64,000 bases of DNA from a virus (lineage: Duplodnaviria > Caudoviricetes), in IMG/VR virus record IMGVR_UViG_3300035517_000383, positions 64,001-128,000 of that record; one strand, given 5' to 3'. Made by a program: the position numbers and the translations under genes. The notes beneath the pieces are model-generated. The model saw only the letters and a program-made list of their open reading frames with translations. It had not been told where the DNA came from and did not search any database. This document shows, one piece after another, positions 2,257-59,745 of the stretch. The number at the start of each line of letters is the position of its first letter. The first letter of the stretch is position 1.

Positions 2257-2805
2257 ATGGTTGGAATTTATTCTTTTACAAATATAATTAATGGAAAAGT
2301 CTACATTGGTAAGTCAGTTGATATAATTCGTAGATATAACGAACATATGGATTTTAGTCGTTATGCAACTCAATATGAGGATGAATTTCATTTTTTATTA
2401 AATGAACATCCCGAAAATTTTATATTTCAAATACTCGAAATTTGCAATAAAGAAGAACTTAATGAAAAAGAGGCTTATTATATAAATTATTATAATTCAA
2501 TAGAAAGTGGCTATAATAAAATTAAGGCTTCTAACAATTTTTATGAGGATAGCTGTGCGGCCGTCCCATCAAAAAGAGAGATAATAAAAATGATAACAAA
2601 CTTACTTGAAAAACCTTTATTTAAAGAAGATAAAGAAAAGTTAGCGAGATTTTTTAATTATAAAGGTTCTAAAGGACAATTATTAAAATGGAGAACAATT
2701 AAACAGATTATTATTGATAAGGGTTTTGATGTTGTAGAATCTAAAAGATTTTTTAATGGAAAAACGGTTAATTGTTCTATTATCAGATTAAGATGGGATG
2801 AATAA
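2257..2805 (+). CDS. Free-standing GIY-YIG endonuclease (putative homing endonuclease)
   Basis: N-terminus MVGIYSFTNIINGKVYIGKS..R..EH, later E..YI..YNS...GYN. Confidence 0.85.
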   Translation: MVGIYSFTNIINGKVYIGKSVDIIRRYNEHMDFSRYATQYEDEFHFLLNEHPENFIFQILEICNKEELNEKEAYYINYYNSIESGYNKIKASNNFYEDSCAAVPSKREIIKMITNLLEKPLFKEDKEKLARFFNYKGSKGQLLKWRTIKQIIIDKGFDVVESKRFFNGKTVNCSIIRLRWDE

Positions 2806-2809
2806 TTAT

Positions 2810-2838
2810 TTGATTTTTACTATAGTTTATGATATAAT
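2810..2838 (+). promoter_or_regulatory. sigmaA-type promoter (TTGATT-17-TATAAT)
   Basis: Same motif as the other early promoters, followed by AGGAGG RBS. Confidence 0.7.
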
Positions 2839-2873
2839 TTAATTTAATATAATAAAATAAGGAGGAAATTTAA

Positions 2874-3299
2874 ATGGAACAGCAGAAAAAGAAAGGTCCG
2901 AAGAAACCAGTTAAACGTGTTCGTAAGAATGTAATTAAGAATTTGGTAAAGGAAAATCAGCGAATTCATGATTATGATAGTCCATTTGGAGTAAAATTTT
3001 GGAATAAAATATTAAAGGATTCTAAATTTCTAGCAAAAAATCATAAGGTTTTTGATAAAAATTTACCAGCAATTATTGAACGAGATTATGAATATTATAA
3101 TCGTTGTTTGGAGACAGAAACCGACTCAAATAAAATCTATATTTTAAAAAGAAAAATCTATCAGCTTGAATATTTTCTTGATGATAGATGGAAAACACTT
3201 TTTGACGATGCGGCGCGACTTTACCCTGATAAAAGAGAAATTTTATGGGCAGAAAATCATGAAAATATTTATGAGAAAAAGAAAAACAAAGGTGAGTAA
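2874..3299 (+). CDS. Hypothetical basic protein
   Basis: 141-aa ORF, AGGAGG RBS. Confidence 0.75.
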   Translation: MEQQKKKGPKKPVKRVRKNVIKNLVKENQRIHDYDSPFGVKFWNKILKDSKFLAKNHKVFDKNLPAIIERDYEYYNRCLETETDSNKIYILKRKIYQLEYFLDDRWKTLFDDAARLYPDKREILWAENHENIYEKKKNKGE

Positions 3300-3301
3300 A
3301 A

Positions 3302-3844
3302 ATGAATTATCAAAAAATTAATTATTTTGACACCGCTAATGCACGAGGTCTATCAACTGTTTTATGGGTCAGTGGCTGTGAACATTATTGTGAGGATTGC
3401 TTTAATAAGGAGACTTGGAGTTTTGATAGTGGAAAAGAATTAACACAAAATAAAATTCGAGAAATTATTGCTTCTTTGAAGAATCGTCATATTAATAATT
3501 TTGTACTTAGTGGTGGTGACCCCTTGCACCCAAAGAACATAAGTGATACAATAGAGTTATGTAAGAAAATCAGACAAGAGGTTGAGGATATTAATATAAT
3601 TATTTACACTGGATATACTGTGAATGAATTATGGAATAGGGGTGAATATATGACCCTGTTTTCAATTGTGGATATTTTAATTGATGGTAGATATGATAAA
3701 ACTAAGCCTACTAAGGGATTAGATTATCGAGGTAGTACTAACCAAAGAGCAATTCAGTTTAAAGTTGATAAGAATGGAAAAATAATTGGTTATTATGATA
3801 AAAGCGATTTTTATTTTAAAGAATCTCAATTCATTATATCTTAG
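3302..3844 (+). CDS. nrdG: Anaerobic RNR activating enzyme (radical SAM)
   Basis: CEHYCEDC (CxxxCxxC), SGGDPL, YTGY, DILIDGRY, RGSTNQR. Ends in TAG; under code 15 it would extend to TAA at ~3856. Confidence 0.93.
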   Translation: MNYQKINYFDTANARGLSTVLWVSGCEHYCEDCFNKETWSFDSGKELTQNKIREIIASLKNRHINNFVLSGGDPLHPKNISDTIELCKKIRQEVEDINIIIYTGYTVNELWNRGEYMTLFSIVDILIDGRYDKTKPTKGLDYRGSTNQRAIQFKVDKNGKIIGYYDKSDFYFKESQFIIS

Positions 3845-3877
3845 TTTATAAATTAATACTTATTATTAGTTAATTAT

Positions 3878-3906
3878 TTGACTTTTTTATAAAAATATGA
3901 TATACT
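3878..3906 (+). promoter_or_regulatory. sigmaA-type promoter driving the large ncRNA
   Basis: ttgact 3878-3883, 17 nt, tg-a-tatact 3901-3906; no ORF follows. Confidence 0.75.
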
Positions 3907-3912
3907 ATATAA

Positions 3913-4482
3913 GTAAGATAAAATTCTTATTTACGGTTAGTTTTACTAACTGATTACCTCTACGATATATTCGTAACTACAAGTGAATAGCTAAGTAAGA
4001 ACTGATACAACACTAATGGATTGTACCACTGTATGAACAGCAAATTTAAGACAAAATGTTTTAATTTTAAATTAAACTAAATTGCCTTAACGCAGTAATG
4101 ACGCTGTAAAAGATACTGCGATAACAAAAAGAAATAAAGGGACTGTTGGGATGATAGGCTCTTTATTTCCATGTCTTTATAGTTTAATAAGCTGAGCAGT
4201 AGAAATTTATTCGTTTAATAAATATCGTAATATTAATCGTCAAAAAGGTATCTTAAACCTTTGACAAACGTATTGTCATAAAAGTAGGGGTAGGGCTTAT
4301 TGTAAATAGAAGAAACTGATTTGTCTTATAGGAGAGAAGTATAGACAGCACTTAACTTAATATTCTTTTTCAGTTTCAAGCCATCTGTGGTTTAAAGTTA
4401 TATAGTGTAAAAGGAAGAACTCATTTCGTATCAGTGACGGAACAGTTTAAAGCAAAAGACCAGAATTAATTTTCTGGTCTTT
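3913..4482 (+). ncRNA. Large structured non-coding RNA (~570 nt; ROOL/GOLLD-like size class, family not confirmed)
   Basis: Promoter upstream, terminator downstream, no ORF. Nested long-range helices: actgatac 4001-4008/gtatcagt 4428-4435, acacta 4010-4015/tagtgt 4403-4408, accac 4025-4029/gtggt 4387-4391. Local stems include cgcagta/tactgcg, gaaataaag/ctttatttc and gaaactga/tcagtttc. Confidence 0.7.
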
Positions 4483-4490
4483 ATTTGTTT
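4455..4490 (+). terminator. Rho-independent terminator
   Basis: aaagaccaga-loop-tctggtcttt followed by T-rich tail. Confidence 0.75.
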
Positions 4491-4569
4491 TCTCTTTCTT
4501 AGGGAAAAATCTATTTGAAATCGTTCGGGAACAGTTTAGTTTATAATATTTTTAAAGAGGTGAATTAAT

Positions 4570-5718
4570 ATTTTTATAAGTAATCAAAAATATTTTATTG
4601 ATAGAATAAACTCTCATGATGCAAATAAATTTGTAAGTATATACCACTATTCTCATAGCGGCTTTAAAGGTGCAAAATTAAACTTAGGAATTTATAATAT
4701 AAACACTAAAGAATTAGTTGGTGTTTAGCAATGGGGTCGTGCGGCTTAGTCTAAAATAAGACTTGACAGATATGTTAAAGAATCAATTAATATAGATGAA
4801 TATTATGAATTAAATAGATTTTGCATGGCTGATTCAGAAGAAAGAAATAGTGAAAGTCAAGCTATTTCTTTAGGTATAAAATGGATTAAGAAAAATTGTT
4901 AGAATATTAGATTATTAGTCTCTTATTCTGGCAGAAAAGAGGGAAATTATGGATATATTTATTAGGCTACTAATTGGGAGTATTTAGGTTATTTTTTATC
5001 TTCGGCTTTTTGGCGGCTTGACGGAGAAGAAAGACATTAGTTTACCGCTTGGTAGAGATATAAGTTACATGGAAACTAGAATTTAAGTTTTGTTGATGCA
5101 CTTTGTGAAATGTATCACGATGTCCGTTAGATTGAGAGTAAGCAATTTATTTATATAATAAGACTTGACAAAACTCTTACTCCCGCATCGACAGTACTTC
5201 CTTATCCCAAGTCAACAACTGAATATCCTATAGAAACAAACTGTATAATTTATTAGGAGGACAATAAATATTTGGAATATTCTTATAATTTAGAAAAGGA
5301 ACATTTTTATTATAAACCTTATCGAGAAAAAAGAAAAATAGATACAACTTGTTATAAATATGCTGTTTATGAATTAGATGGGACTTTAGAGGGAATTTTT
5401 GATAAACTAGGAGATATTAAAATTGATGGTTATACCTCAGATGGAATTCGTGCAGCCGCAAAAGAAAACAGAAAATACAAGAAAAAATATTTTTTGAGAG
5501 ATTTAGATGCTTCTAATTTTCCCTTACAGTTAGATATAACCCCAATATGCTGGATAGATGAAATTCCATTTTATACAAGACCTGATATTGTACAATATCT
5601 TCAAATTTCTAGACAAGCGGTACAGCAAGCTTGCGTACGTAAAAGTAAAATAATTGGTGGAAAGAATGTTATCTGGGGAGAGGAAAATAAAAATGAGCGA
5701 GTTTCGCACGAAAATTAA
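4570..5718 (+). CDS. Mom-like DNA-modification (GNAT-fold) protein with C-terminal NUMOD1/HTH-like extension; 9 in-frame TAG read as Gln
   Basis: With TAG=Q: HYSH...ELVGVQQWG...YELNRFCMADSEERNSESQAIS...LLVSYSGRKEGNYGYIYQATNWEYLG...LPYPK, continuing in frame into ORF 5272-5718. RBS GAGGTG at 4557-4562; only an ATT start is available. Confidence 0.75.
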
Positions 5719-5887
5719 AGCTTATGATAAAGAGGGTAATCTTTATGATTGTGAAATGGTTATAAATAATTGTAAATTGTTTCATAATGAGATAGAACGA
5801 TGTGAAGAAGTCACATTTAACAAGGAAACATCAATACAGTTTATTATTGATAATGCTAAAGAATTATTAGAAAGTCAAGATAAATAA
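5693..5887 (+). CDS. Small hypothetical protein
   Basis: ATG at 5693 after GAGGA RBS. Confidence 0.55.
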   Translation: MSEFRTKIKAYDKEGNLYDCEMVINNCKLFHNEIERCEEVTFNKETSIQFIIDNAKELLESQDK

Positions 5888-5889
5888 TC

Positions 5890-5918: not shown

Positions 5919-5949
5919 TGTTATAGAAAATAAAAAAGGAGGAAAGTGA

Positions 5950-7806
5950 ATGAGTTATAATGCAAATGATTTAAAAACTCTCTCTGCTGGCGCGGCCTAT
6001 AGAGAAAAATTGGGTATGTATCTTTCAGCAGATTTACAAGAGGCTATTGATTTAGGACTACGAGAGCTTCTTTATAATGCTCAAGATGAATATGAAGCTA
6101 CTCATAAAGATGGAAGTCAAGTATCTATTACAATAGATACTAAAACTAATAAAATTATTGTAGAAGATAATTTAAGAGGTATTCCGTGTTCAATCAGAGA
6201 TGATGGAATTAATTCCCTTACTGCTGCCTGTTTACTACCTCATTCTGGTGCAAAGCATAAGGGTGAAAATGCTTATAAACAGGCGGTAGGTGTCAACGGG
6301 CAAGGAATGAAAATTGTCTGTCATACTTCTAGCTTTTTTGAAATTGAAGTAAAAAGAGATGGAAATATTTACTACCAATCTTTTCATGAAACAGACGAAG
6401 GTGCTGTCCCCAATGATGATGTAAAAATTATAGGAAGCACTTCTTTAACTGGAACAAAAATTACTTATATTCCATCTCCCACTGTATACGGAAAAGATAC
6501 TAAAATTGATATTGACCAACTTAAAAAGAATTTAACGGACTTATCTTATTTTACAAAAGGATTCAAAATCATTTTAGTTGTAGATGGAATTAAAACTGAA
6601 TTTTATTCAGAAAATGGACTTTTGGACGGTCTAGATTCTACACTAAGATACCATAAGAATGCTTTATATTTTCAAAAGGATTACAATGATTGTAGTGTGG
6701 AAATAGCAATTCAATGGAATAAAAAGCATGGGGAAATTAAACCTTATGCAAATAATTTGTATGTAAGAGATGGTGGCGCATTTATTGTAGGTTTTAAAAG
6801 GTCATTAACAACCACGTTTAATAGACTAGCTAATAAAAATTTTTCAGGAGACTTAATTAGAAAAACATTAGAAGGATATGTTAGTGTAAAAGTTTCTGAT
6901 GTTCAATTTTCAAATCAGGCTAAAACTGCTTTAGCTAATAAAGAAGCTCAAACTGCAACTTCTGCAGCAACTAAAGAAGCTTTAGAAACTTTTGCAAATA
7001 TTTTTAGAGATGATTTTTTTGCAATTGTCGAGGTACTATCAAAAGAAGAAAAAGCTGATAAGGCCGCGGAGAAAGCAAGAGAAAATGCACTAAAACGAGA
7101 TAATGAAATTAATAAAGAACTAAAGAAAAAAACAATTTTAGCGGGGAAACTTGCTGATTGTAGATACCATGATGAGAAATCTCAATTGATTATAGTAGAA
7201 GGCTTGTCAGCATTAGGCAGTATAATAAAATCAAGAAATAGTGATTATACAGCCGCTTTTCCATTGACAGGTAAAATTCTCAATGTACTAAAAAGTACAG
7301 AAGATGAACAAATTTCAAACGAAGTATTAAAAAATCTCCATACTGCTATTGGAGCTGGTTTTGGTTGTAATTTTAATATGAAAAAGATGAGATATGGAAG
7401 AATCGTTTTTGTGTGTGATGCAGATGAAGATGGATATTCTATTATGTGTTTGCTTTTGGCTTTTATGTATAAATATTATCCAGAATTGTTAAGACAGAAA
7501 AAGGTCTATTGGGGACAGACACCATTGTTTAAGGTTACAACAAAACAAGATAAAGTTTATTATGCATATACAGAAAAAGAACTCGAATCATTACCAGATG
7601 GTGATATTTTAAGAGCAAAAGGAATTGGAGAACTTGAACCAGAAGATTTTAAAAATACTCTTTTTTCAAAAGAAGGTAGATATATTCCTTTTAGTTTTGA
7701 AGATGCAGAAAAAGCAAATTATTATTTTGATGTATTACTTGGAGAGAATATTAAAGAACGTAAGGAATACATTAGTAAAAATGCAGATTTTGACGCTTTT
7801 GATTAA
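5950..7806 (+). CDS. gyrB: Type IIA topoisomerase B subunit (GyrB/ParE)
   Basis: GHKL motifs ELLYNAQDE, DNLRGIP, HSGAK, GVNGQG; TOPRIM IVEGLSA, PLTGKILNV, DADEDG, KGIGE. Confidence 0.93.
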   Translation: MSYNANDLKTLSAGAAYREKLGMYLSADLQEAIDLGLRELLYNAQDEYEATHKDGSQVSITIDTKTNKIIVEDNLRGIPCSIRDDGINSLTAACLLPHSGAKHKGENAYKQAVGVNGQGMKIVCHTSSFFEIEVKRDGNIYYQSFHETDEGAVPNDDVKIIGSTSLTGTKITYIPSPTVYGKDTKIDIDQLKKNLTDLSYFTKGFKIILVVDGIKTEFYSENGLLDGLDSTLRYHKNALYFQKDYNDCSVEIAIQWNKKHGEIKPYANNLYVRDGGAFIVGFKRSLTTTFNRLANKNFSGDLIRKTLEGYVSVKVSDVQFSNQAKTALANKEAQTATSAATKEALETFANIFRDDFFAIVEVLSKEEKADKAAEKARENALKRDNEINKELKKKTILAGKLADCRYHDEKSQLIIVEGLSALGSIIKSRNSDYTAAFPLTGKILNVLKSTEDEQISNEVLKNLHTAIGAGFGCNFNMKKMRYGRIVFVCDADEDGYSIMCLLLAFMYKYYPELLRQKKVYWGQTPLFKVTTKQDKVYYAYTEKELESLPDGDILRAKGIGELEPEDFKNTLFSKEGRYIPFSFEDAEKANYYFDVLLGENIKERKEYISKNADFDAFD

Positions 7807-7808
7807 TA

Positions 7809-11053: not shown

Positions 11054-11158
11054 TAATATAGAAAATAAAACAAACGACATAAACGAAAAGTTTTGTAGTT
11101 GTGAGTTTTTATTTAATAAATAAATAATTTTAAAATTTTTAAAGGAGTGATTTTTATT

Positions 11159-11437
11159 ATGGCAACAAAGATGACAAAAAATAGTAGAGAAGTTTTTGAT
11201 TATTTGAAGGCAGCAGGTGCAGGTGTTAAGTTCACAACTAAGGATGTTCAGTCAGCTCTCGGTTTTGAAAAGGCAGGTTCAGTAACAGGTTCGGTAACAG
11301 GTCTTGTAAAGAAGGGTTATGCAGAAAGATTTACTGAGACAGTTGAAACTGAGGATGGCAAGGTAAAGGAAATTAAGTATTTTGCTCTTACAGAAGCAGG
11401 TGCTAATTTCGACCCCGATGCCGCAACAGAGGACTAA
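11159..11437 (+). CDS. Small winged-helix-like DNA-binding protein, probably highly expressed
   Basis: wHTH-like pattern (VFDYLK..FTTKDVQSALG..SVTGLVKKGY..YFALTEAG); double promoter, own terminator. Confidence 0.7.
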   Translation: MATKMTKNSREVFDYLKAAGAGVKFTTKDVQSALGFEKAGSVTGSVTGLVKKGYAERFTETVETEDGKVKEIKYFALTEAGANFDPDAATED

Positions 11438-12460: not shown

Positions 12461-13701
12461 ATGGCTATTGATTTACTTAACCTAGAACCGCAGAAGATAA
12501 GCAAAGATTTAAAAGGAAAATTTACATTGATTTATGGACAAGCTGGGTGAAACACGCCCCTTATTTAAGTAATTAAATAATGAAAATAGAGTAAAAAGCT
12601 GGAAACCTAAACTTTTTTTGAGCATGGTAATCAGAGCGGAAGTTATTTTTAAAAGAGATAACACGCGCAACGCATAGGTAAAATAACTTTTAAAATTTAT
12701 TTTTAAGAGAATAAAAACCCAAGAGACTCTACAACCAAACAATGGTTGAAAAGATATGCTGAACTTATAGGAAACTATAAGAAATAAAAGATAAAAAACT
12801 TTTATGATAACACAATGGTGGAAAGACCACACTTGCTTCTCAGTTTGACAAATGCTTGATAGCTGGTTTCGAGCAAGGAAGCAATGCCCTAAATAATGTT
12901 TATGTTCAACCAATTAAAACTTGGCAAGATTGGAAGTCTGCAGTTTCTCAGTTGATAAAGAAACCAGAACTACAATCTAAGTTTAGTACAATTGCAATTG
13001 ATACAGCCGATGAAGCGTTTAAACTTTGTGAAAAATGGACTTGCTCACAATATGGAGCAGAAACGATTAAGGATATTGCGGCATATGGTGGCGGATACAA
13101 AATCCTAGATGATAATTTTATGACACCTTTTAGAGATTTAGCTTACGCTGGGTATGGTCTTATTTTTGTTTCTCATGAAGCTGAAAAGACTTATGTAAAT
13201 GACAATGGTGAGGAGTATACAAAGATTGTTCCTGCTCTTCCAAACCGTCCTTTTGGTCTTATTAATAAAATGGTAGATTTAATAGGTTATATACGAGAAA
13301 TTCCAATAAAGAAAGAAGATACTATAGAACATAAGAGATATATGTTCTTTAGAGGAGATGAAAGATTTTTAACTAAATCTCGTTTTAAGTATATCACTCC
13401 TAAAATAGAATTATCATATAGTGCTTTTGTTGACGCAATTTATGATGCAATAGATAAGGAAGTTGCTCATAGTGGCGGCGAAGCAACAGAAGAAAAGAAT
13501 CCTTATTTGGAACGTTCATTTGATGAACTTATGGGTGAAGCAAAGGAGCTTTGGAATAAGGTAATTGCAAATGATGTAATTGAAGATGCTAAAAAGATTC
13601 TAGAAACAGAATTTGGAAAGCCTATTAAATTTAGTGAAATTGTACCAGAACAAGCGGATAAATTAAGTAAAGTCCTTATCTTAATTAAAGAATTGTTCTA
13701 A
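12461..13701 (+). CDS. AAA ATPase, Sak4/AAA_24-like recombinase; spliced: join(12461..12548,12818..13701)
   Basis: Splicing rebuilds Walker A YGQAG-C-GKTT; Walker B TIAIDT; LIFVSH; DLIGY. Confidence 0.85.
12549..12817 (+). ncRNA. Group I intron (269 nt, ORF-less) in Walker A of AAA ATPase
   Basis: P1 gggU/gccc, P7 gcata/tatgc, terminal G; splicing restores frame and GxxGxGKT. Confidence 0.9.
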
Positions 13702-13754: not shown

Positions 13755-15250
13755 ATGACTTATATTATTGATACGTGTGTACTTTTAGATTATCCTCAAA
13801 TTGTAGAAGATAAGAATAATCAATTAATTATTGCCACCAGTGTATTAAAGGAACTTGATGGATTAAAAAAACATAACAACCCAGAAACTGCTGCGGCCGC
13901 ACGACGTGCCGCTGTTTATATTTCTAGGAATTTAGACAATTTAGACTGGTATTCAGATTGTGAGAATTGGAATATTCCAGTTGATGACCAACTACTTAGA
14001 ATTACTAAAGAACTTTCAGGAATTTTATTAACTAACGATGTCTATTTAAAAGTTAAAGCTCTAATTGATGGAATTAATACTAAGGGATATGGTAATAAAG
14101 ATGATTATATTGGTGTAGAGTATTGGTATTTAAATTTTGATAGTAATTATTATAATGCTCGTTTAGCTCATGTTTTTGAGACTGGTAAAAAGCCTGAAGA
14201 AATTAAACTCTATGAAAATCAATATTTAATTGTAAAAAATCTTGACTCAATCGTAATGACAAGACATCAAGAAGAAGATTATGAGATTATGGCCTGCTTT
14301 GTTTATCGTAATGGCAGACTTATGCAAATTGATAATCTTAAAATTAAAAATAAGTGGATTAATTGTATTGTTCCAAAAAATGCTGAACAAATGTGTTTGT
14401 TTGAAGCTCTTAATAACAAAGATATTAATATACTCTATGCAGGAGGCAAATTTGGAACGGGTTATTGATTAGCTCCCTTATATAGTGATATATATTGAAT
14501 AACGTGGTTAATTACTGGAAAACCTAAGTCTTTTAGATATGGCAATCAGCAGCCAAGTCACTTAGTTAGTGAAAAGGTTCAACGACTATCTCGGAAGAGA
14601 GTAGAATTTTATTAATTCTAAATTACCACGCTTCTATTATTAGAAGAAGATATAGTCTACTCCGACCATTAAATTGGTGTTAAAGTATCTCGAAAGAGAC
14701 GGTATATAGGAAGTCCTTTATTTTAAATAATTTTGCATTGCAAGAGTTGGAAAAAGAAAGAATAAAGAAAATTGTTTATATTCCTAATAATTCTTATGTT
14801 GAAAATTCTATGGAACTAGGATTCCTTCCGGGTTCTGATTTTGAGAAGTTAACCCCCTCTATTGGTCCGTTAATTGACCTTATCGGAATTGATGCGGTTC
14901 AAGATATGATTTCTAGAGAACAGCTCGAAATTGTTCCTACTGGATTTATCAGAGGACGTAGTTTTGAAGATTCTATAGTAATTGTAAATGAAGCTCAAAA
15001 CCTTACAGAAGACCATATAAAACTTTTAATTGCACGTTGCGGCGAAGGCACAAGAATTCTATTTGACGGAGATTATAAACAAGCTGATTCTTTTATTTTT
15101 AGAAATAGAAATGGATTAAAGTTACTTCTAAATTTAAGAAAATCTCCTTTTTATGCAAAAATGTTTTCTACTGTTAAATTGGTTATTACAGAAAGAAGTT
15201 CTACCGCTCAGGCGGCTGAATACCTTGACCAATTAGCATCGGAAATATAA
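13755..15250 (+). CDS. phoH: PIN-PhoH family ATPase; spliced: join(13755..14462,14711..15250)
   Basis: PIN IIDTCVLL..ELDGLK..TND; Walker A GKFGTG|KS restored; GFLPG, FIRGRSF, NEAQN, GDYKQAD. Confidence 0.9.
14463..14710 (+). ncRNA. Group I intron (248 nt, ORF-less) in Walker A of phoH
   Basis: Exon ends gggU; aatcagcag; P7 gacta/tagtc; terminal G before aag (Lys). Confidence 0.9.
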
Positions 15251-15365: not shown

Positions 15366-16091
15366 ATGAAATTATCAGAAGAAACAATTTTAAAAATTCC
15401 AATTCTTTATAAAAAATTGGGAACAAAAAAACAAGTGGCGGAACAATTAAATATATCACCCACGACAGTTTCAAAATATTTAAATCTTTTTGAGGCGGCC
15501 GCACCGCAAGAAAAAACAAAGAAAGAAAAAAAGAAAAGAATTAAAATAACAGATGAAATTATTGAAAAAATAAATCAAGTTTATAGTGAACAAAAGAATT
15601 TAACAAAGACAGCAGAAATTATAGGTTGTTCTATTCAAACAATTAAAAAATATTTGACAGAAGAAAATCTTAATATTAGTGAATCCCAAAAAGATGACAG
15701 AGATGCATTGTTCTTCTATATTTATAATCTATTTGGACAATATTCAGATGACAAACCTGTTAGTGACTGGAATCTTGTTCAGATGCAAAATTTTAAAAAG
15801 CAGGGAATGTCTTACAAGGGACAATTACTTACTTTAAAATATTTTTATGAAGTAAAGAAAAATTCAATTGAAAAATCAAATGGTTCGATTGGAATAATTA
15901 AATATGTATGGGATGAAGCGGAAAGATATTATACTCAGCAAGCAGAAAAAGCAGAAGAATTTAATAAAGCAATTCAGCGGCAACTTGAACAAGACAGACT
16001 TTCAATTAAATATAATCCAGAAGATTATGTCAATAAAAGAAGAAGAAAGAAAACTATTGACCTAAATTCATTAGGAGGTGAAAGTGGTTGA
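15366..16091 (+). CDS. HTH-containing DNA-binding protein upstream of helicase (possible initiator/loader)
   Basis: Two HTH-like segments (KQVAEQLNISPTTVSKYL; TKTAEIIGCSIQTIKKYL); overlaps helicase start. Confidence 0.65.
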   Translation: MKLSEETILKIPILYKKLGTKKQVAEQLNISPTTVSKYLNLFEAAAPQEKTKKEKKKRIKITDEIIEKINQVYSEQKNLTKTAEIIGCSIQTIKKYLTEENLNISESQKDDRDALFFYIYNLFGQYSDDKPVSDWNLVQMQNFKKQGMSYKGQLLTLKYFYEVKKNSIEKSNGSIGIIKYVWDEAERYYTQQAEKAEEFNKAIQRQLEQDRLSIKYNPEDYVNKRRRKKTIDLNSLGGESG

Positions 16092-17776
16092 TTCAAATTG
16101 ATAGACGTACCATAATCCAAATTTTTGGCAGTTTGATGAGCCGTCCCAATCTTTTAAGTGATGTTGATAAATACCACCTAGAACCTAATGACTTTCATAA
16201 TCAGTTTGATAAATATGTTTTTTCTGCAATTTATAATCTCTATGTAAACGGAGCAGAAATTATTCATACTGTTGATATAGATAATTTTCTTCAATCTAAT
16301 ACATTAGCTAAAGATTTATTTGAAAAAGAAAACGGAGTAGCTTTTCTTCAAGATTGTGAAACATATTGCGAACCTAATAACTTTTCTTATTATTACAATA
16401 AACTAAAAAAGATTAATCTATTAAGAGAGTTACAGAGAACAGGAAAAGATATTAGTAAATTCTATTCAGAGGATTCTTTAGATGAAAATCATGATAGTAT
16501 AAATATGAATTTTGAAAAATTAAGTACTTCTGATATTGTTAATGCTTTAAAAGGGGAAATTGCTGGACTAGAAAGAAAGTACGTTCTTAATTCTGTTGTT
16601 GAAGAAAGTAATGCCTATGATGGTATAAGAGACTTGATTCAAGACCTAAAAACAGTTCCAGAAATTGGTTGTCCACTTCAAGGTGAAATATTTGATACAA
16701 TTGCTCGTGGCGGCCGCAAGGGAAAAATGTATTTACGTTCAGCGGCAACATCAGTGGGTAAATCAAGAAGTATGGTTGGTGATGCTTGTAATATTGCTTA
16801 TCCAATTAGATATGAACCGACTTATGGTAAGTGGATTGCTACAGGACATCATGAAAAAGTTCTTTATATAATGACAGAACAAGACCCCGCGGAAATTCAA
16901 ACGATGATTTTGGCGTATCTTACTGGATATAATGAGGAAATGTTTCTATATGGAACATATCAAGAAGAGCATATGGATAGAATTATGAAAGCTATTGATA
17001 TTATGGAAAAATATAAAGATAATATGTTATTTGCTAGAGTTCCAGACCCATGTGCCTCAGTAATTAAAAACTTGTTTAGACGTTATGCTTTACAATATGG
17101 AGTAGAAAATTTTTTCTATGATTATATTTTTTCTTCTCCTGCAATGCTAGATGAATATAGAGATTTAAAACTTCCAGAACACGTTTGTTTAAGATTGTTT
17201 ACAACAGCCTTAAAAAATCTTGCGGTTGAACTTGATGTTTTTATCATGACTTCCACTCAGATTAGCGGAGACGAAGAAGAAGGTTTTAGAGATTATAAAA
17301 AAATTAGAGCTTCTAAATCAATAGCAGACCTTGTAGACTTGGGTTGTATTATGTCAAGACCATCTATAGATGAATTAAAGATGGTTGCTAATTTTCAAAA
17401 GAATTTTGGATTCAGTCCAAATTGCGTTACTGATATTTACAAAAACAGACGTGGCCGCTGGAATATGGTTAGAATTTGGTCTAGAAAAGATTTAGGAACG
17501 TGTAGAACTTATGACTTATTTGTAACAACAGCAGATAATAAAATTATAGAAGATTTTCAAATTATTGATTTTGAGTGTCTTAAGACTAAAGAAATGGATG
17601 AATTAGAAGATTTTTATAATAATGGAGTTGTTTCTGATGAAGTAGTAGAGGATTTATTAATGAATATTTCTAGAGAAGAGCCAGAAAGTCTTTTGGAATC
17701 AGTTACTAATGCTTTTGGAGATTTTGAAAAGAAAAAAGAAAAAATAAAAGAAACAGATTTGAGTGATTTATTATGA
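16088..17776 (+). CDS. dnaB: Replicative DnaB-like helicase
   Basis: Walker A-like AATSVGKS, YIMTEQ, FYDYI, TSTQ, KNRRG. Confidence 0.85.
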   Translation: MIQIDRRTIIQIFGSLMSRPNLLSDVDKYHLEPNDFHNQFDKYVFSAIYNLYVNGAEIIHTVDIDNFLQSNTLAKDLFEKENGVAFLQDCETYCEPNNFSYYYNKLKKINLLRELQRTGKDISKFYSEDSLDENHDSINMNFEKLSTSDIVNALKGEIAGLERKYVLNSVVEESNAYDGIRDLIQDLKTVPEIGCPLQGEIFDTIARGGRKGKMYLRSAATSVGKSRSMVGDACNIAYPIRYEPTYGKWIATGHHEKVLYIMTEQDPAEIQTMILAYLTGYNEEMFLYGTYQEEHMDRIMKAIDIMEKYKDNMLFARVPDPCASVIKNLFRRYALQYGVENFFYDYIFSSPAMLDEYRDLKLPEHVCLRLFTTALKNLAVELDVFIMTSTQISGDEEEGFRDYKKIRASKSIADLVDLGCIMSRPSIDELKMVANFQKNFGFSPNCVTDIYKNRRGRWNMVRIWSRKDLGTCRTYDLFVTTADNKIIEDFQIIDFECLKTKEMDELEDFYNNGVVSDEVVEDLLMNISREEPESLLESVTNAFGDFEKKKEKIKETDLSDLL

Positions 17777-18831
17777 TTGATTTAAAAGAATTGGAACAAA
17801 GTTTAACAGACGAACGTATAATTGAATTAGTTACTGAATTAGGTTCTGATGATTATAAAGATACACCAAACGCTATAATATTTAAAACAATATGTCATAA
17901 CATAGATTCTACAGAAGCAAGTTTAAAACTTTATTATTATAAAAATACTAAAAGATTTAAATGTTATACAGATTGCGGTGATACATTTAATATATATGAG
18001 CTGTTTAGGCGGCGATATGAGTTATTAGGAATAGAATATGATTTTTATAAAGATATAATTCTTAAAATCTCAGAAAACAATCTGGTGTTTCAAGAAAAAG
18101 GTTTTTACAACAAATATGAAAGTGTTTATGAGAAATATAAGAAAAATAGCCCTAAAGTAAATATATCTATTCTACATCCTTCTTTATTAAATACTTTTAC
18201 TTTCTATCCAACACAAGAATGGTTAAATGATGGAATTAGTATTCAATCTATGAGAGAATATAACATAAAATATTCAGTATCTGAAAACAAAGTTGTTATT
18301 CCTCATTACGATAAAGACGGATATTTAATTGGAATCCGTGGACGTGCCCTTAATGAAGAAGATATTGAGCTTGGTAAGTATATGCCAATTCAAATCGAGG
18401 GAAAATTTTATTCTCATCCTCTTGGATATAATCTTTATGGATTAAATTTTGTTAAAGGTAATATTAAGAAAAATAAAATTGCAATAGTATATGAATCGGA
18501 AAAAGCTGTTCTTCAATATAATACAATGTTTGGACATCAAAATAATATTGCTGTTGCGGCTTGTGGTAGCAGTTTTCATGATTATTAGATGAAATTGCTT
18601 GTGGCCGCTGGTGCAGAAAAAGTAATAATTGCTTTTGATAAAGAAGGGGAGGATTGGAAATCGAAAGATAGATATTATAATAAATTAAAAAAAATATGTG
18701 AACGCTACAAAAATATTTGTAATATGGGTTTTATATTTGATTTTCAAAATCTACTGGCTTTAAAAGATAGTCCAACAGACAAAGGTAAAGATATTTTTTT
18801 AAAATTATATAAAAAGACAATATGGATATAA
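17773..18831 (+). CDS. dnaG: DNA primase (Zn finger + TOPRIM) with one in-frame TAG (Gln) at 18586-18588
   Basis: CHN..CYTDC zinc domain, VIPHYD..IGIRGR, LYG, YESEK, then DY(Q)MKLL..IIAFDKE..KDSPTD in one frame. Confidence 0.85.
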
Positions 18832-28815: not shown

Positions 28816-29541
28816 ATGGCAAACAAAATTAAATTTGAAGATGTAAAATAGGATATAGAGAAAAATGGTTGGCTATTAAAGTCAACCGAATATCTTAATT
28901 TAAAAACAGATTTATTGGTTGAATGTCCAGAAGGTCATGAATGTCATGTATCCTATGAGAAGTGGCGGCGAAAGAACTATGAGTGTCCAACTTGTAAAAA
29001 CAATCCTTATGCCCATAGTGATAATATTGTAGTAAAGAAAACTGGTTTTAGAATTCTTGCTTTAGATTAGGCATCAATTACAAGTGGTTGGGCAATATTT
29101 GATGATGGAAAATTAATTAAATTTGGTAAATGGACCTCAGATGGAAATAAAAGTACAGAAAGAATTGCAAAGACTAAATACTGGGTAGCCTCTATGATTG
29201 ATAAATGGAGGCCAGACCAAGTAGTACTTGAAGACATATAGCTTCAAAAGTTTGATAGTGGACAAGAAGGTGTTACTACTTTTAAGAAACTTGCTCATTT
29301 ACAGGGGGTTTTAAAAAATTATTTCTATGAATTGGGCTTACCTTATAAAGTCGTGCCGCCGTCAACATGGAGAGCTTTTAGTGAGATTAAAGGAAAAACT
29401 CGTTCAGATAAAAAGAAAAACGCTCAAATTAAAGTTAAGCGTTTTTATGATATAAGTGTAGACAATGATACAGCAGATGCAATTCTAATAGGTCACTGGG
29501 CAGTGCATGATAATGAAAGCAATAAAATAATTGAATTTTAA
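28816..29541 (+). CDS. ruvC: RuvC-like Holliday junction resolvase with N-terminal Zn ribbon; 3 in-frame TAG
   Basis: With TAG=Q: CPEGH..CPTC, ILALDQASITSGWA, VVLEDIQ, PSTWR, DNDTADAILIG. Confidence 0.85.
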
Positions 29542-29909: not shown

Positions 29910-30321
29910 TAGTCTCATCTCCTTCATTATCTACTTTTGCAGTTGTAGTAGTTATTGGTAATGCTGCGGCCGCACCGCACATGGAACAATTTGATGTCCC
30001 CAGCATTTTAAAAACTCCAGACTAAATATTAGTATGAACTCTTACAGAATATCTTGTACGGCTATGAATTTGGCAAGCTTTCACATTCGTACAATCATTA
30101 TTTACTAATGGATATGCTGTAGTACCAGTTCCTATTGTAATAACTGCATTTGCGGCGATAGTTGTAGTTAATGGAATTGACTACCCAACAACTATACAGT
30201 ATTTTTCATTATTCCCATAACTACCAGCTGGAATATTAATAATCAATTGACCATTGGAATAAGTAACACTTTGCGAAATAATTAAATGCTCACAAAGGCA
30301 TTTAGTAGCTGAGCAACTCAT
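29896..30321 (-). CDS. Cys-rich hypothetical protein (141 aa, 2 TAG)
   Basis: MSCSATKCLCEHLIISQSV...KYCIVVG(Q)SIP...RTRYSV; open only with TAG=Q. Confidence 0.75.
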
Positions 30322-43262: not shown

Positions 43263-43263
43263 T

Positions 43264-55200: not shown

Positions 55201-56928
55201 AATATTTTAAACGCCGATTGACGCTGTTTTACTCATAGCATAAGCAATATCTTCAACACTAGCAGCGGCATTAGCAGCAAGCTCAGAGTAAACATCTGTT
55301 ACGTGAGAGCCTTCTTCCATTTCTAATTTAAACCCGCGCAAGGCCGCCGTCATTTCAGAAGTGGCTGTACTAAAATCTAGACCAGCCAAAGTAGCAAGTT
55401 TCATTGTGTCTTCTGTAAGTGATAAAGCTTCATTTGTATCAAGGCCTTGTTGGTAGAATAAAGCAGAAGCTTCAATAACGCTTTTAGTTTCCTGTCCTAA
55501 ATTTTTTGCCATATCGGCATAATCACTATAACTATCCCACATTTCTGATACAGAATAATCAGTAACCATTGCAATGGATGCAAAAGCACTATCTAATTCT
55601 TTTACGTCCTAAAATGTTTCTTGTATAGCTTGTTTTACTAGTCTCCATGCAGACCCAATTGAAAGTATTTGTTTTACAGTGTTTTGTAAATTACTAAATG
55701 CGTTGTTAACATTTTCCTAAGCTTCTGCCCATTCTAAGTTTGCCTAAACTGTGTCATGTGCGGCACCTCTAACGTTTTCCTGAGCCTCTACATTTCTGTC
55801 TAGTTGCTAATTAAAGTTCTCAACATTCTATCCAGCTAATGCCATTGCAGAGGACAAAGTACTTTCCAATTGTTGTGTAATCTATTCAACTTGTTGTAAA
55901 TTCTAAGTTAAAGACTAAACATCACTATTATTAACGAGATTTTGTCCTGCTTCACTTAGTTCAAATTCACCTTGTGCATTACTTTGGCCAAGAACCATTG
56001 AATTTCTTGCTCTAGTAATTTGTCCTTTAATACCACTTTCTGTTGCAGCATTAGTCATTGCATTTAAATCTCTAGTAAAGTCCTCTTGGAGTTCATCTGT
56101 ACTTGTAATAGCAACTCCATATTTTTTCATTTCTGCTTGTAGTCTTGCAACAGCATCAGCCGCAGTTTTGCCGCTATTTCCAATTTCTTTTAATACCTTA
56201 GAATACTCTTCTGTTAATGCAGACTAAACATTGGATGCTTCTACCGTCCTATTAGCAGTTACTCCAGTACCACTTCTTAAGTCTGTTCCTCCGTGAGTAC
56301 CCCTTCTGTCAGTTGCGGCATAAGTATATTTATTAGCATCAACAGTTACATTCTCTGCGTATGATTGAGCATTTGCACTTTTAGCAACTTGTTTACCAAT
56401 GCTTTTTCTTGCGGCTTCTTCTTTTGCTTGACCGACCTTTTTAATTGCTGCTTCAAGCTGTTCTTGATTTTTAATTTCACCAGTAATAGATTTAATTTCT
56501 TTATCGTTTAGTTTTAAACTTTTAGCTTGTTCAGTCAAACTATCTTTAGCTGTCTTAACTAAATCTTCTTGTTTACTGTTTAGATTGTCAAGCTAGGTTC
56601 TATATTTCTGAACCTCAGCGGCATTTACATTGAAATTACCAGCTTGATTAACTTGTCTTAATCCAACCTAAATTTTAGCAATAACTGTATCAAGTTTATC
56701 AAATTGTTTACCAAAATTTTGCACGTCTTTGCTTCCAGAAAATCCTTTTTGTACATGAGCAAGAAGTTCTTGCACCATTTTATCTGCCGAAGCAATATCT
56801 TTATCTACTTGAGTAAACATACTATTCTATGCGCCAGCCTATGACATAGCCTGACGAACTTGTTTTAAGGCATTAAGTATATTACTAACATCTAAATTAC
56901 CTTTTATAGTATAATTTCTATCTGCCAA
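43264..56928 (-). CDS. Tape measure protein (~2624 aa) in 7 exons: 55221-56928, 53817-53899, 52358-52374, 51795-52011, 50463-50489, 49336-49356, 43264-49065; many TAG
   Basis: Exons total 7875 nt (divisible by 3) and rebuild the TP901-type TMP core ..AMSKTASIANSAGMSFETTSAFLTQMIETTQEAPENIGTAMKTIIARF..LDRNTQRYIATTAAGSRQQSRFIALMEDYDRT..; TTG start after AGGTGA. Confidence 0.88.
49066..49335 (-). ncRNA. Group I intron 6 of TMP (270 nt, ORF-less)
   Basis: P1 AUAGCU/GGCUAU, P7 variant GGUCA/UGACC, terminal G. Confidence 0.88.
49357..50462 (-). mobile_element. Group I intron 5 of TMP (1106 nt) with HNH ORF in 3' (P9) region
   Basis: P1 UCGU/GCGA, P10 UGCUG/CAGCA, P7 GACU/AGUC, terminal G. Confidence 0.88.
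49365..50204 (-). CDS. Intron-encoded tandem HNH endonuclease + NUMOD1 (279 aa, several TAG)
   Basis: AHRLVAEYFL..VHHKDGNRLNNH..NLEWV; AHILV..IDHIDGNKLNNH..NL; IEGNIIKIFPSIAAAA. Confidence 0.82.
50771..51652 (-). CDS. Intron-encoded tandem HNH endonuclease + NUMOD1 (293 aa, no TAG)
   Basis: VHHKDGCPRNNALDNLEWV; INHIDSNRGNNRLSNL; QYDLEMNLIQVFPSTSEAA. Confidence 0.88.
   Translation of the reverse strand: MVEGKPVIINGKETQYFLFKNGDLYNENTHRIAQGAINQGYIRFTLEIDGETIGIYKHQLMARLFIPNPENKPIVHHKDGCPRNNALDNLEWVSQEENLNKIINPVEHKITEKLTSEELEEEEWKPLQNSKYEVSNMGRIKNLQTGKITFGSRNKNSGYIRWTYNDLDGNRQEIQAHRAVYMVFHPDEKINVINHIDSNRGNNRLSNLENVSQRENVIKSYYQTKTKQTKLTGQYDLEMNLIQVFPSTSEAARSLGLNNCSNLSRAMKTGGISHGYYWREISKAEYDEFLNKK
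51707..51735 (-). promoter_or_regulatory. Early-type sigmaA promoter inside intron 4 upstream of its HNH gene
   Basis: Minus strand TTGACT-17-(TG A)TATAAT. Confidence 0.75.
52012..52357 (-). ncRNA. Group I intron 3 of TMP (346 nt, ORF-less; putative C-A 5' splice pair)
   Basis: AAUUGCUGGGAA, AAUCAGCAGCC, P7 GACUA/UAGUC; GC|A junction restores GTAMKT. Confidence 0.8.
52375..53816 (-). mobile_element. Group I intron 2 of TMP (1442 nt) with GIY-YIG ORF in P1 loop
   Basis: Exon end CCCU pairs with GGGG after the ORF stop; P7 GACUA/UAGUC; terminal G; restores QEAP|ENIG. Confidence 0.85.
52716..53693 (-). CDS. Intron-encoded GIY-YIG homing endonuclease (325 aa, 1 TAG)
   Basis: MDYGYIYYVRNEINGMMYIGK..YKGSG..AFKKFGRENF..LEKYY..FYN; RBS AGGAGG. 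Confidence 0.85.
53900..55220 (-). mobile_element. Group I intron 1 of TMP (1321 nt) with nuclease ORF in P6 loop
   Basis: P1 AGCGU/GCGUU; AAUUGCUGGAA; AGUUUAAGAUAA/UUAUCUUAAACU stem brackets the ORF; P7 GACUA/UAGUC; terminal G. Confidence 0.87.
53963..55054 (-). CDS. Intron-encoded Zn-ribbon-repeat + PD-(D/E)XK/Vsr-like endonuclease (363 aa, 4 TAG)
   Basis: Repeated CxxCG..CxxC units, then S..E..V..FL..FDF..LIEVQGQQHY..RD..KREYC..NNIPLIEVPYW. Confidence 0.8.
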
Positions 56929-56942
56929 ATTAACTCACCTCA

Positions 56943-58706
56943 TTATATTGATAAAGCTGAAATAGAAATTAATTTTAAAATGTTCTCGATTTCAGTTTCT
57001 TTTATTTTATGAATTTTTTTTGTACTCTATCCCACGACATTATTTCTTCCTGTGTCGTTAATTTCTTTTACGGTATAAAAATCTCTAATAATATTCGTAT
57101 TATTTAATACTTTTGATTTCTCTAATATATCAGCATATCTCTAAGCTAAAATAGCCGAGGCGGGATAGAAATATCCAGAAATTTTGAATATAGGGCTATA
57201 TAAAATGTCCTTTTCTTTTATTTTTTGCAATGCCCTATTTTTCATTCCTTCGTAAGTTGCTGCTCTTATCTGACCCAAATCCGCCTAAGATAAAACTGCA
57301 TTTATATATGTTTTATCTTCGTCATATAACTCTATTAAAGAAGTTAATATTTCAATTTGCTATACTGATAATAGCTAAACAGCTTCTTTAATTGATAAAT
57401 TATCTATATTTAAATTTTTAGTTGAATATAGTCCTGTATTTATGCCTTTAGTCTTTCCTGTAATATTTATCAAATTAAACTCTTTATCCTATATTCCGTA
57501 ATAATGACCCTTTATCTTTATTATTTCATCAACACCAGATTTAGCTTTCCCCATAACTGTTGGATTGAGTGAGCGTTCTCCAACACTAGTTGTTTTAATT
57601 CCGACAATTTTGTTTATATAAGTAGTTAATATTTCTCCATAATCACCTTTGAATGCTCTACTTATATAACCCTTATTTTCTTTGTTTGAAACATAAGTAA
57701 TTTTTACAAGTTCATATCCTGATGCAATTAATTTTTTATGCATTTTTTGCCAATATTCTTTGTTATTTAATATTTTTTCTAATTTGCCTATTAATTTCTT
57801 ACTTCTGCTAAGTTTTGATTTTACGGCGCGTAAATATTCCTATTGAATTGGAATAACCACATATTTTTTAAACATCTCATAATTTTTTGAAAATTCATCT
57901 ATCTACTTTTTATAATCTTCGGTATCTAAAGACTATGTTTTATTGTTTTTTTTATTCTATTTGTTATCACATATATTTTTTATTGCTGTTCCAGTGGCTT
58001 CTCTTAATGCTTCATTCAATTTTTTACCGAATTCTTCAAAATTATTAGCATTAATTGGAGTAGTTTGGAGATTATTTTCTAATTGTGTATTGAGTGACTA
58101 AATTTCTTTCATATTTTTATTTAAATTTACAATATCATCGTTTGTTATATAAAATTCGCCCTATGTAATAGTAAAACCTCCAGCCTTACTAATTAAAAAC
58201 AATAAATACGCAAAATTTTTTTCATTATCAAAGTCGTCTTCATCTACAATTTCTTTGAGTTCCTGTCGAATGCTATCTTTGCTTCCTTTTATTTTTACCT
58301 CATTGTCTGTATTTAAAAATTTTTCTTCTCTACCAAAATAAAATTGACTAAAATAATTATTAAAATCATTAGCATATTTGTTTGCAACCTGTCTTAATTT
58401 ATTTATATTATTACAATAATCAACCGATGGTTTTTTAAAATTACAATCGGGATTGTCTTTTTTAATATCCTCAATTAATGTTTTCTCTACATTTAACAAA
58501 GTATTTAAAGGAATTTTTATTAATTCTTCCTTGTCGTTAAAATTTGTATTGCTTTTTTCTTGATGCAAGGCCTCGTTTGTAAGATTTTTTTCATATTTAA
58601 GAGTTTTATCACATTTTAAAAAATTATCAAATTTTTCTTTGTTTTTTATATAAAAACCGTATGGTTCGGAAGATTCTTCTATTTGTCCGAAATTATAAAT
58701 ATTCAT
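56943..58706 (-). CDS. Hypothetical protein upstream of TMP (~587 aa, many TAG)
   Basis: Fragments 58161-58721 and 57489-57743 share a frame; RBS GGAGGTG; TAA at 56943. Confidence 0.7.
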
Positions 58707-58724
58707 TTTTCTCACCTCCAAAAA

Positions 58725-58751
58725 TAAAAATGAGCGACCTTTGCCGCTCCT
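58725..58751 (-). terminator. Rho-independent terminator
   Basis: GAGCGGC-AAAG-GTCGCTC-ATTTTT on minus strand. Confidence 0.65.
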
Positions 58752-59653
58752 TAAATATAATCTCCAGTTAATTCCGTATCTAAAAAAGTTATATATGCTA
58801 TAGTCTACCCCTCTCTCCTTCTATTTTCATCTGGATAACCAGTAAAATAGAAATCACTAACAGTAGACATATCATAACTTTTTCCCAATTTCACTGATAA
58901 ACTCGAAGATAATTTAATTTTTGGCATCTCCAATATCGCAGTGGTCACTTCTCCACTCTTTTCATCCTTTACACTCATTTTCCCATTTAATCTGAGAAAA
59001 CCATTAAAAAGTCGGTTTCCGACTTCAATTACCTTAATCTTATCTTCATAAGTAAAAGTATAATCGACCAAAACATTTCTATATTGCTCTTGAAAGAAAA
59101 TTCGATTTTGATAAATTTCAAAATCTCTAATTCGCAGACCCGTATCTGCATCGTAACAGAAAATCCATTTTGTCTTTGAAGGCAGCAATGGTTTCAGCAT
59201 CAACTCTGGTCTACGTCCCATTGGCAATGGTTCATTATATGGATTAGGTTGTGCGCCAATCTTACAATCGCAATTATTTGGTCTATATTTCAAATCAACA
59301 TAGCAATAGTTACCATCATCTATTGTATGCAAAGTCTCATAATACTATACCGATTTGATATTCGGTTCCTTTAACTATGAGTTACTTAGTAATGCCCAAC
59401 TTGTAGGAGATAATACTCCATGAGTAATAGCAAAACTAGCTTCTCTATCAATTTCCCAATTTACTAATGCCGGATTATGATAGCCACCACTTGCTTGTAC
59501 AGTTCTCTTTTGTTCTTGGAACTATGCAATCTCAGCGGTAGAAAAAGATAATATCGTTTCATTAATATCATATTTTCGTTCACCAATTTCAAGTGGATTA
59601 TTTAGCCTTAGAGTAACGTCATAAAGTTCTTTCATACCAGCAAAATTCTCCAT
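58751..59653 (-). CDS. Divergent tail-tube-family paralog (300 aa, several TAG)
   Basis: MENFAGMKELYDVT resembles the GIKEVADV N-termini; GGYHNPALVNWE; LEMPKIKLSS. Confidence 0.65.
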
Positions 59654-59715
59654 TAGATATTTCACCTCCTTTTACTCCTTCTTTTAATAAAGTAAAGATT
59701 GTTAGTTTCTAGTAT

Positions 59716-59745
59716 AAAAAAATAAGACGACCTTGCGGCCGCCTT
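59716..59745 (-). terminator. Rho-independent terminator
   Basis: AAGGCGGCC-GCAA-GGTCGTCTT-ATTTTTT on minus strand. Confidence 0.65.

Follow-up and report, generated by a model that had tools for sequence, protein, structure and literature searches.

The pentamer GCSGC is the target of the restriction-modification systems TauI, CglI and NgoAVII, and the Chi sequence of Lactococcus is GCGCGTG. GCSGC is on record as a restriction-modification target (PMC4267653), the Chi sequence of Bacillus subtilis is AGCGG (PMC4614115), and Chi is over-represented in lambdoid phages that lack RecBCD inhibitors (PMC3784561). In cyanobacteria, HIP1 is GCGATCGC, and Cyanothece PCC 7822 has GCsGC as an alternative HIP (PMC4390886; PMC5861425); in the model of Elhai, HIP is driven by mismatch repair directed by GmeC. 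A partial search of the phage literature returned no report of the enrichment described here.

Across the window, by which we mean the whole 64,000-nucleotide stretch of phage DNA that was analysed, GCSGC occurs 123 times (63 GCGGC and 60 GCCGC; about 1.9 per kb, or one per ~500 bases), against a zero-order expectation of 10.1 at 30.2% GC, an observed-to-expected ratio (O/E) of 12. The whole 152-kb genome holds 315 sites (2.1 per kb), where a first-order model predicts 25. The dispersed, unstranded sites run from position 634 to position 63650, randomly spaced over coding and non-coding sequence. The extreme over-representation noted in a preliminary description is thus confirmed (123 against about 10), and its estimate of ~50 sites in the first 30 kb is close to the 56 we count; its GC content (27-28%) was too low and its extent (2558-59742) too narrow. 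GCGGC/GCCGC is the top-ranked pentamer of the window under zero-order and maximal-order Markov models. Equal enrichment of other GC-rich pentamers, named earlier as counter-evidence, was not found: GCGGC is dominant among GC-rich words in joint models, and the other enriched ones, CGGCG, CGGCC and CCGCC, overlap it.

Single-letter variants of the motif are roughly dyad-symmetric in this phage (G000) and in G022, and coding-strand enrichment is equal for the two orientations in both gene blocks (5.5-fold vs 5.6-fold) and uniform across gene classes, homing endonucleases included. Gaps between sites are Poisson-like, both in variance and at short lags, and the pentamer effect is additive, being unchanged by gap size (0.52, 0.54, 0.56 and 0.51) with no premium on isolated sites; these observations rule out even spacing or gap filling. 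The same genome avoids GATC (0 sites), CCWGG (2) and GGWCC, and does not favour AGCGG.

The phage has recoded TAG to glutamine: 83% is coding under genetic code 15, against 59% without it, a suppressor tRNA with a CUA anticodon lies at genome position 27510, and TAG is carried by the late genes of a genome whose two gene blocks have opposite skew. An AAA_24 protein (12856..13701, plus strand) occupies the position of SPbeta YorG, a Sak4-like annealing protein. The five NotI sites were placed exactly in the preliminary description. Two encode Ala-Ala-Ala, one within a PIN/PhoH gene (13893..13900) and one within an HTH/endonuclease-like ORF (15495..15502); the third encodes Gly-Gly-Arg (GGC GGC CGC) within a DnaB-like helicase (16710..16717), the fourth lies inside a code-15 ORF on the minus strand (29966..29973) and the fifth in a short intergenic spacer with late genes on either side (59735..59742), none of the five sites itself being stranded. 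We reject NotI as a signal of its own, since each site is two overlapping pentamers and such pairs occur at near the chance ratio (NotI : GCGGCGGC/GCCGCCGC : GCCGCGGC of 8:16:5, chance 1:2:1).

Synonymous shuffling of the coding strands under genetic code 15 leaves a 5.5-fold enrichment overall, as the codon-preserving check proposed at the outset required: coding GCGGC occurs 171 times against 29.9 (shuffle maximum 45) and coding GCCGC 99 times against 18.5 (shuffle maximum 28). Both orientations and several codon phases had been reported, and all three phases are enriched, with 142 sites against 39 in phase 0 (Ala-Ala), 89 against 8 in phase 1 (11-fold) and 39 against 1.9 in phase 2 (20-fold). 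As a correction to the earlier remark on Ala-Ala dicodons, roughly one coding site in two is Ala-Ala, and these too exceed expectation. Rare codons are used to hold sites, and the three contexts given for this are correct: AGG-CGG-CGA at 18009 in a YorJ-type primase (17773..18831, plus strand, one in-frame TAG), TGG-CGG-CGA at 28965 in a RuvC-like Holliday junction resolvase (28816..29541, plus strand, three TAG), and CGC-GGC. Non-coding sites number 27 against 1.8 at zero order (~15-fold); the earlier mention of introns and terminators needs the correction that most non-coding sites lie outside hairpins. At positions where a single synonymous transition makes or breaks a site, 251 of 326 and 131 of 178 (76%) are in the site state, against a 14% baseline. 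The push is alike at all five motif positions and in both orientations, and the odds of a site are about twentyfold above neutral in this genome. Shuffle and toggles together exclude a codon or amino-acid artefact. In the same shuffle, GTGGC stands at 1.46-fold, GCGAC at 0.85-fold and GCWGC at 0.42-fold.

Enrichment is clade-wide. Among some 65 relative loci, collected with gyrB (5950..7806, plus strand) and with the primase as second marker, O/E ranges from 1.2 to 12, the weakest GCGGC enrichment being that of members favouring GCGCG; density reaches 4-5 sites per kb, and the log odds ratio (lnOR) is close to 2 across lineages. The complete 163-kb genome G020 has 329 sites against 39, and phAss-1 has 159 GCSGC against 56 expected. 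No enrichment was found in SPbeta or in the four cultured relatives GR1, SA2, 949 and a C. difficile phage (O/E 0-2.2), 66 unrelated methyltransferase-bearing viral loci have O/E of at most ~4 with few sites, and six candidate host genomes are not enriched (lnOR -2.8 to +0.7); host composition is rejected as the source. The preference extends to dipeptides: Ala-Arg/Arg-Ala stand at 1.6-1.9 and Ala-Ala at 0.8-0.9 times expectation in GCGCG phages, whereas in GCGGC phages Ala-Ala stands at 1.1-1.7 and Ala-Arg at about 1.0-1.2. GCGCG disappears in members that avoid GCGC, and the GCGCG/CGCGC variant is not a dyad or palindrome on the axis of GCSGC.

Two-state estimates from five close pairs of GCGGC genomes put synonymous losses at 0.30-0.58 and synonymous gains at 2.4-4.6 times neutral. 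For groups B and D (loss 0.30-0.49, gain 2.4-3.3) these values are close to the calculated Kimura expectation at S of about 2 (loss 0.29, gain 2.4). Group A gains at 4.0-4.6 times neutral, with a confidence interval above 2.8; this exceeds the selection-only prediction and counts against selection. Synonymous losses are unreduced at the shallowest tips (16 vs 17.1) and fall to 0.41-fold deeper down, in small numbers, a pattern that delayed purging of mildly harmful losses would produce. Under strict polarisation pooled synonymous losses fall only to 0.75-fold (P 0.07), which also counts against selection. GCGCG phages show a reduction in GCGCG loss, with 49 synonymous losses against 72. Gains arise at all five motif positions in the simple polarised test, in which controls were also gained 1.7-3.1-fold in group A. 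Methylatable positions show no excess of C-to-T loss. These results support a dispersed, actively kept DNA-level signal. The earlier proposal of such a signal under selection stands as to dispersal and maintenance; biased repair, an option it did not list, may be the force instead of selection.

A search of the genome for a C5 methyltransferase, as had been suggested, finds one 5.2 kb before the window, a HhaI-like protein of 322 aa with motifs intact, whose QSNR segment aligns with the target-reading segment QGER of HhaI. No close characterised relative of it was found, and an adjoining D12-like ORF has no Pfam match. The phage's own C5 methyltransferase is not the cause of the enrichment, because 19 of 21 complete relatives, all enriched, lack one (PF00145 matches in 2); an N4/N6 methyltransferase is rejected likewise, PF01555 matching in just 1 of 18 relatives, all enriched. 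The self-mark that had been proposed thus fails as a cause, and we consider it very unlikely that GCSGC is marked by this enzyme and spared by a partner nuclease: none was found, most complete enriched relatives (e.g. G020) lack PF00145, and the methylatable positions tell against it, even though the intact enzyme, its alignment and the slightly higher enrichment of members with a C5 methyltransferase (lnOR 1.95-2.46 vs median 1.86; P 0.012, uncorrected for kinship) speak in its favour. The main rival to selection is a drive without function, in which repair or gene conversion resolves mismatches towards the GCGGC strand as has been modelled for HIP, raising the rate of site gain and lowering that of loss; it is possible, though we hold it to be somewhat improbable. 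The pentamer is that of Cyanothece PCC 7822 (PMC4390886), gains fall at all five positions with orientations equal, the effect is flat over gap size and over gene classes including homing endonucleases, lnOR is near 2 in all lineages and slightly higher in members with a C5 methyltransferase, and RecJ, ligase and Pol III alpha are encoded across the clade, with UvrD in most members. Such near-equal strength in lineages of differing population size is more easily explained by repair bias. Yet this drive requires a methyl mark, which 19 of the 21 complete relatives could not supply through PF00145, and a host mark should have enriched the host chromosome, as it has not in candidate hosts; Elhai's saturation of about one site per kb is also exceeded, at up to 4-5. 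Very-short-patch repair is rejected as the drive, the genome having no PF03852 (vsr) match, GTGGC and GCGAC being undepleted, and gains coming from all positions.

That GCGGC is the Chi of the host AddAB, stocked on both strands against end degradation or spacer acquisition, we judge improbable. Stocking has its precedent in the lambdoid phages (PMC3784561), and the Chi pocket of one Acutalibacteraceae AddB keeps Q42, E48, F68, R70 and F210, with T44 and W73 changed. GCGG is moreover the core of AGCGG, GCGCG begins the Lactococcus Chi, and over 31 kb of the MAG that holds a clade contig (G036) GCGGC is polar at 40:9. This polarity, chosen after the fact, is lost in larger samples: larger contigs of the same MAG give 12:10 and 17:11, G086, a congeneric genome, carries 100 TGCGGC and 100 GCCGCA on one strand of a single 222-kb stretch, and candidate host G044 has 336:349. 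Codon-controlled toggles in candidate hosts show no polar excess, isolated sites are unfavoured with Poisson spacing, and cultured relatives do not stock their own hosts' Chi. The Chi-like AddAB option offered originally is accordingly unsupported, AGCGG being unfavoured too; searches for a host by dockerin pattern and DnaA-box cluster gave nothing. Were the reader host AddAB, the motif would be the Chi of uncultured gut Clostridia. A primase start or other strand-specific replication signal is most unlikely: the clade has its own primase and one site per 0.5 kb fits Okazaki spacing, but coding-strand orientations are equal in both gene blocks, spacing is uneven, and by eye the zinc finger has no difference that tracks the motif. 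Barely credible is an origin as a side effect of codon use and restriction avoidance, with GCWGC purged and Ala-Ala pushed to GCS-GC. The low GCWGC, GATC and CCWGG counts and the Ala-Ala half of coding sites suit it, but the shuffle and the toggles refute it: phases 1 and 2 and non-coding sequence are enriched, and positions 1, 2, 4 and 5 are pushed as strongly as the centre. Nor does GCAGC come out negative in the joint model.

The enrichment points to a putative DNA-reading factor rather than to the phage's own methyltransferase. Tentatively, we take weak additive selection for sites of a putative phage-coded factor as the best reading, and, with more reserve, suggest that a large gut phage family codes a methylation-independent reader of GCGGC (or GCGCG), and that selection for its sites has reshaped codon choice and protein sequence across the genome. 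We infer that the force is selection rather than repair bias and that the reader is phage-coded, although it may instead be a host factor. GCGGC in either orientation would be a short recognition word of a factor acting along the entire phage DNA, for instance a protein that coats the genome or one that serves replication or recombination. The benefit of each site would be small and independent, with a scaled strength of about 2, rising to about 3 in the present phage; this may suffice to keep roughly two thirds to three quarters of the places where a synonymous site is possible in the site state, despite a strong GC-to-AT mutation pressure, and to nudge protein sequence as well; in a sub-clade the reader would take GCGCG too, or instead. 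The C5 methyltransferase of a minority is probably secondary, and its putative role would be to protect undeletable sites from host restriction. Of the three options in the preliminary description, sites for a putative phage binding protein fit best. A candidate reader is a 96-aa winged-helix protein (11147..11437, plus strand) between gyrA and yorF, of generic winged-helix fold. Its gene is clade-core, present in phAss-1 and not found in the outgroup regions examined; gene and trait being of single origin, their co-occurrence is one data point, and its recognition helix does not track the switch between GCGGC and GCGCG. UvrD is rejected as reader, since it is missing in G005 and G009, both enriched.

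In size (~154 kb), opposite-skew blocks, late-gene TAG and suppressor tRNA the phage resembles the Agate clade of recoded gut phages of Firmicutes (bioRxiv 10.1101/2021.08.26.457843) and phAss-1 (PMC10607447); the available parts of the two papers do not mention the motif, which could serve as a cheap marker of the clade. Like lambdoid Chi, it is a short GC-rich word hoarded by a phage, a habit of phages that code a recombinase and lack inhibitors, and it has the GCGG core of B. subtilis Chi; unlike Chi, it has no polarity in candidate hosts, and its sites are genome-wide in both orientations, whereas lambdoid Chi clusters in the interval from the origin to the packaging site. The degenerate word is identical to GCSGC restriction-modification targets, which phages avoid; short palindrome-like words are usually lost by phages under restriction, and this clade gains one while purging GATC and CCWGG. 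It also resembles HIP: an outlier GC-rich word at 1-4 per kb, strand-symmetric, coding and non-coding, with sites conserved between genomes and a motif that differs by lineage. It differs in belonging to a phage clade rather than a chromosome, in spacing that is random at short range, in the off-axis GCGCG/CGCGC variant, and in the cognate C5 methyltransferase being mostly absent, so that a pentamer identical to a HIP persists without the enzyme demanded by the main HIP model. With ~60 shared clade genes, the origin and use of an iterated word become far more tractable. If our reading is true, these phages encode a genome-wide cis-signal system that does not depend on methylation and differs from Chi, restriction sites and uptake sequences, and they offer the HIP problem an accessible model.

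The window (bases 64001-128000 of a 152,102-base IMG/VR virus record that is 92% complete) contains 123 copies of GCGGC/GCCGC (GCSGC) against 10.1 expected, and the whole genome contains 315 against 25. The preliminary description had reported this over-representation, had placed five NotI sites at positions that we find to be exact, and had argued that Ala-Ala dicodons do not explain it; indeed, enrichment is seen in all three codon phases and in non-coding DNA, and the excess survives shuffling in which all protein sequences and the codon usage are preserved (observed 171 vs 29.9 and 99 vs 18.5). A NotI site is simply a pair of pentamers that overlap, and its frequency relative to the other overlaps is that expected by chance. 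Our cleanest measure was the synonymous toggle, a third codon position at which a single transition creates or destroys a site, with GC-flanked neutral positions as baseline: 251 of 326 and 131 of 178 toggles were in the site state, against 14% at baseline (log odds 3.0 and 2.8). The effect is equal at all five motif positions, and 16 of 25 CGG codons lie inside a site. It is uniform along the genome, alike in both orientations and across all gene classes; spacing is Poisson, and a toggle's site probability is independent of the gap it would leave. Several intergenic sites, often in short spacers between genes, lie within a few bases of a GTC or GAC, for example in a GCGGC-AA-GTC-like form (window 52613, 58743 and 59735; genome 4854, 5701, 6354, 25567 and 143141), possibly as parts of a longer regulatory element.

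Reading TAG as glutamine raises coding density from 59% to 83%. This recoding affects late genes, mainly at window 26113-64000 and seen across the whole genome, and a suppressor tRNA with a CUA anticodon lies outside the window (genome 27510-27603). A Mom-family DNA modification gene (window 4825-5718) is readable only with TAG as glutamine. Within the window lies an SPbeta-like replication block (NrdD, GyrB, GyrA, YorF, AAA_24/YorG, DnaB, primase, RecJ, Pol III alpha, dUTPase and a RuvC-like resolvase), followed on the opposite strand by lysis and tail genes, where homing-endonuclease-like ORFs interrupt the tape-measure region (49066-56928). A UvrD-like helicase (locus L328:16900-19068, genome 36897-39068) contains an intein; the helicase occurs in 16 of the 19 complete records searched. 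The phage matches the Agate clade in size, layout and recoding, and may belong to it; its published relative phAss-1 has a predicted host among the Clostridia.

Relatives of the phage, gathered by means of GyrB and of the methyltransferase, are also enriched, with observed/expected ratios mostly of 2-12 over about 65 loci of at least 8 kb. The lowest ratios belong to sister phages whose top word is GCGCG/CGCGC (G007, G027, G029 and also G023; loci L094, L127, L142 and L144), and GCGCG is lost entirely from genomes that avoid GCGC. Dipeptide frequencies change along with the motif: Ala-Arg and Arg-Ala are 1.6-1.9x in GCGCG phages (G007, G027), and Ala-Ala and Cys-Gly are shifted in GCGGC phages, these two being noisy in outgroups when taken alone, so that the informative part is the switch with the motif. 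No enrichment was found in 44-50 kb each of SPbeta, Geobacillus GR1, Staphylococcus SA2, Lactococcus 949 and a C. difficile phage, all of which carry the clade's primase family, nor in 66 unrelated viral loci. The bias for GCGGC is real, strong, clade-wide, orientation-free and additive. We found no publication on it within our partial coverage of the literature.

A two-state model applied to five genome pairs (about 91-97% identity; reference, GC-flanked neutral positions) gave synonymous loss at 0.30-0.58x and gain at 2.4-4.6x the neutral rate (log odds 1.9-2.3). Intervals were obtained for four of the pairs, with upper bounds of 0.58-0.82 for loss, so that a mutation bias acting purely through gain is excluded. 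Strictly polarised losses are fewer and give a weaker signal than the pair estimates: the shallowest tips show 16 vs 17 and the deeper group 13 vs 21, and in GCGCG phages the count for GCGCG is 49 vs 72. Of the options raised in the preliminary description, a binding site for a phage protein now leads: we tentatively place weak selection, which would keep sites for a phage-coded factor, narrowly ahead of a functionless biased repair or conversion, which we consider only a little less likely. That GCGGC is the Chi of a host AddAB is improbable. GCGG is the core of B. subtilis Chi, AGCGG (PMC4614115), the Chi pocket is partly kept in one Acutalibacteraceae AddB, Chi is over-represented in lambdoid phages without RecBCD inhibitors (PMC3784561), and in 31 kb from one MAG, G036, no pentamer is more polar than GCGGC; however, this polarity is 12:10 and 17:11 on larger contigs of that MAG, 100:100 over 222 kb of a genome of the same genus and 336:349 in another genome, G044. 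No polarity excess persists under codon control, and the cultured relatives carry no surplus of the Chi words of their hosts. The suggested match to host Chi therefore finds no support in the candidate hosts, which are MAGs holding a clade contig, or kin of such MAGs, and may not be the true host; samples of six such genomes gave GCSGC log odds of -2.8 to +0.7.

The core genes common to the whole genomes belong mainly to replication and to the virion. One candidate for a reader of GCGGC is a 96-aa protein, modelled as a generic winged helix and encoded between gyrA and yorF (window 11147-11437). Almost every member has it, as does phAss-1, and no copy was found in the outgroup regions. We stress that it is a candidate only, as its recognition helix does not change in step with the GCGGC/GCGCG switch.

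The C5 methyltransferase that the preliminary description had proposed to look for does exist: a 322-aa, HhaI-like enzyme is encoded 5.2 kb before the window (genome 57795-58763) and has about 35 orthologues, those checked sitting in related phages. Nevertheless, PF00145 matches occur in only 2 of 18 complete relatives (one weak) and in none of three further ones, and the complete relative G020 has 329 sites against 39 expected without the enzyme; the methyltransferase is therefore not the cause of the enrichment, and a methyltransferase self-mark is contradicted as a general explanation of it. Enrichment is slightly stronger in members with a C5 methyltransferase (P 0.012, with no correction for kinship), although not all of these enzymes are orthologous to the 322-aa one. 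No Vsr was found in the genome, and no methylation-type decay signature at the sites. In relative G017 the methyltransferase is split over two frames (L172, L176; G017:27649-28571). The enzyme may instead shield sites that the phage cannot delete, as we infer from a Clostridia MAG and possible host, G034 (L261-L265, L166, L170, L175). In this MAG GCNGC is avoided, AGCGG is favoured (70 vs 27) and a C5 enzyme is encoded, while a GCSGC-rich phage contig, paired with it by binning, carries another.

GATC is absent from the genome against about 470 expected, and CCWGG occurs twice against 79, so the phage avoids restriction sites while gaining GCGGC. GACC is raised, probably as a synonymous escape from GATC. 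In Lactococcus phage 949 (L382, 1-50000), restriction avoidance reshapes proteins: GCNGC occurs 2 times vs 27, and Ala-Ala is almost missing (1 vs 24 expected). A separate group of large phages (L036-L038, L042, L044, L045, L054) has no GCSGC, no GGCC and about 5-6x CCGGC/GCCGG.

A known parallel is the highly iterated palindrome (HIP) of cyanobacteria (PMC4390886, PMC5861425). Because most complete members of the phage clade lack the cognate methyltransferase that goes with a HIP, we do not class its motif as one; the bias itself, however, works in the same way.
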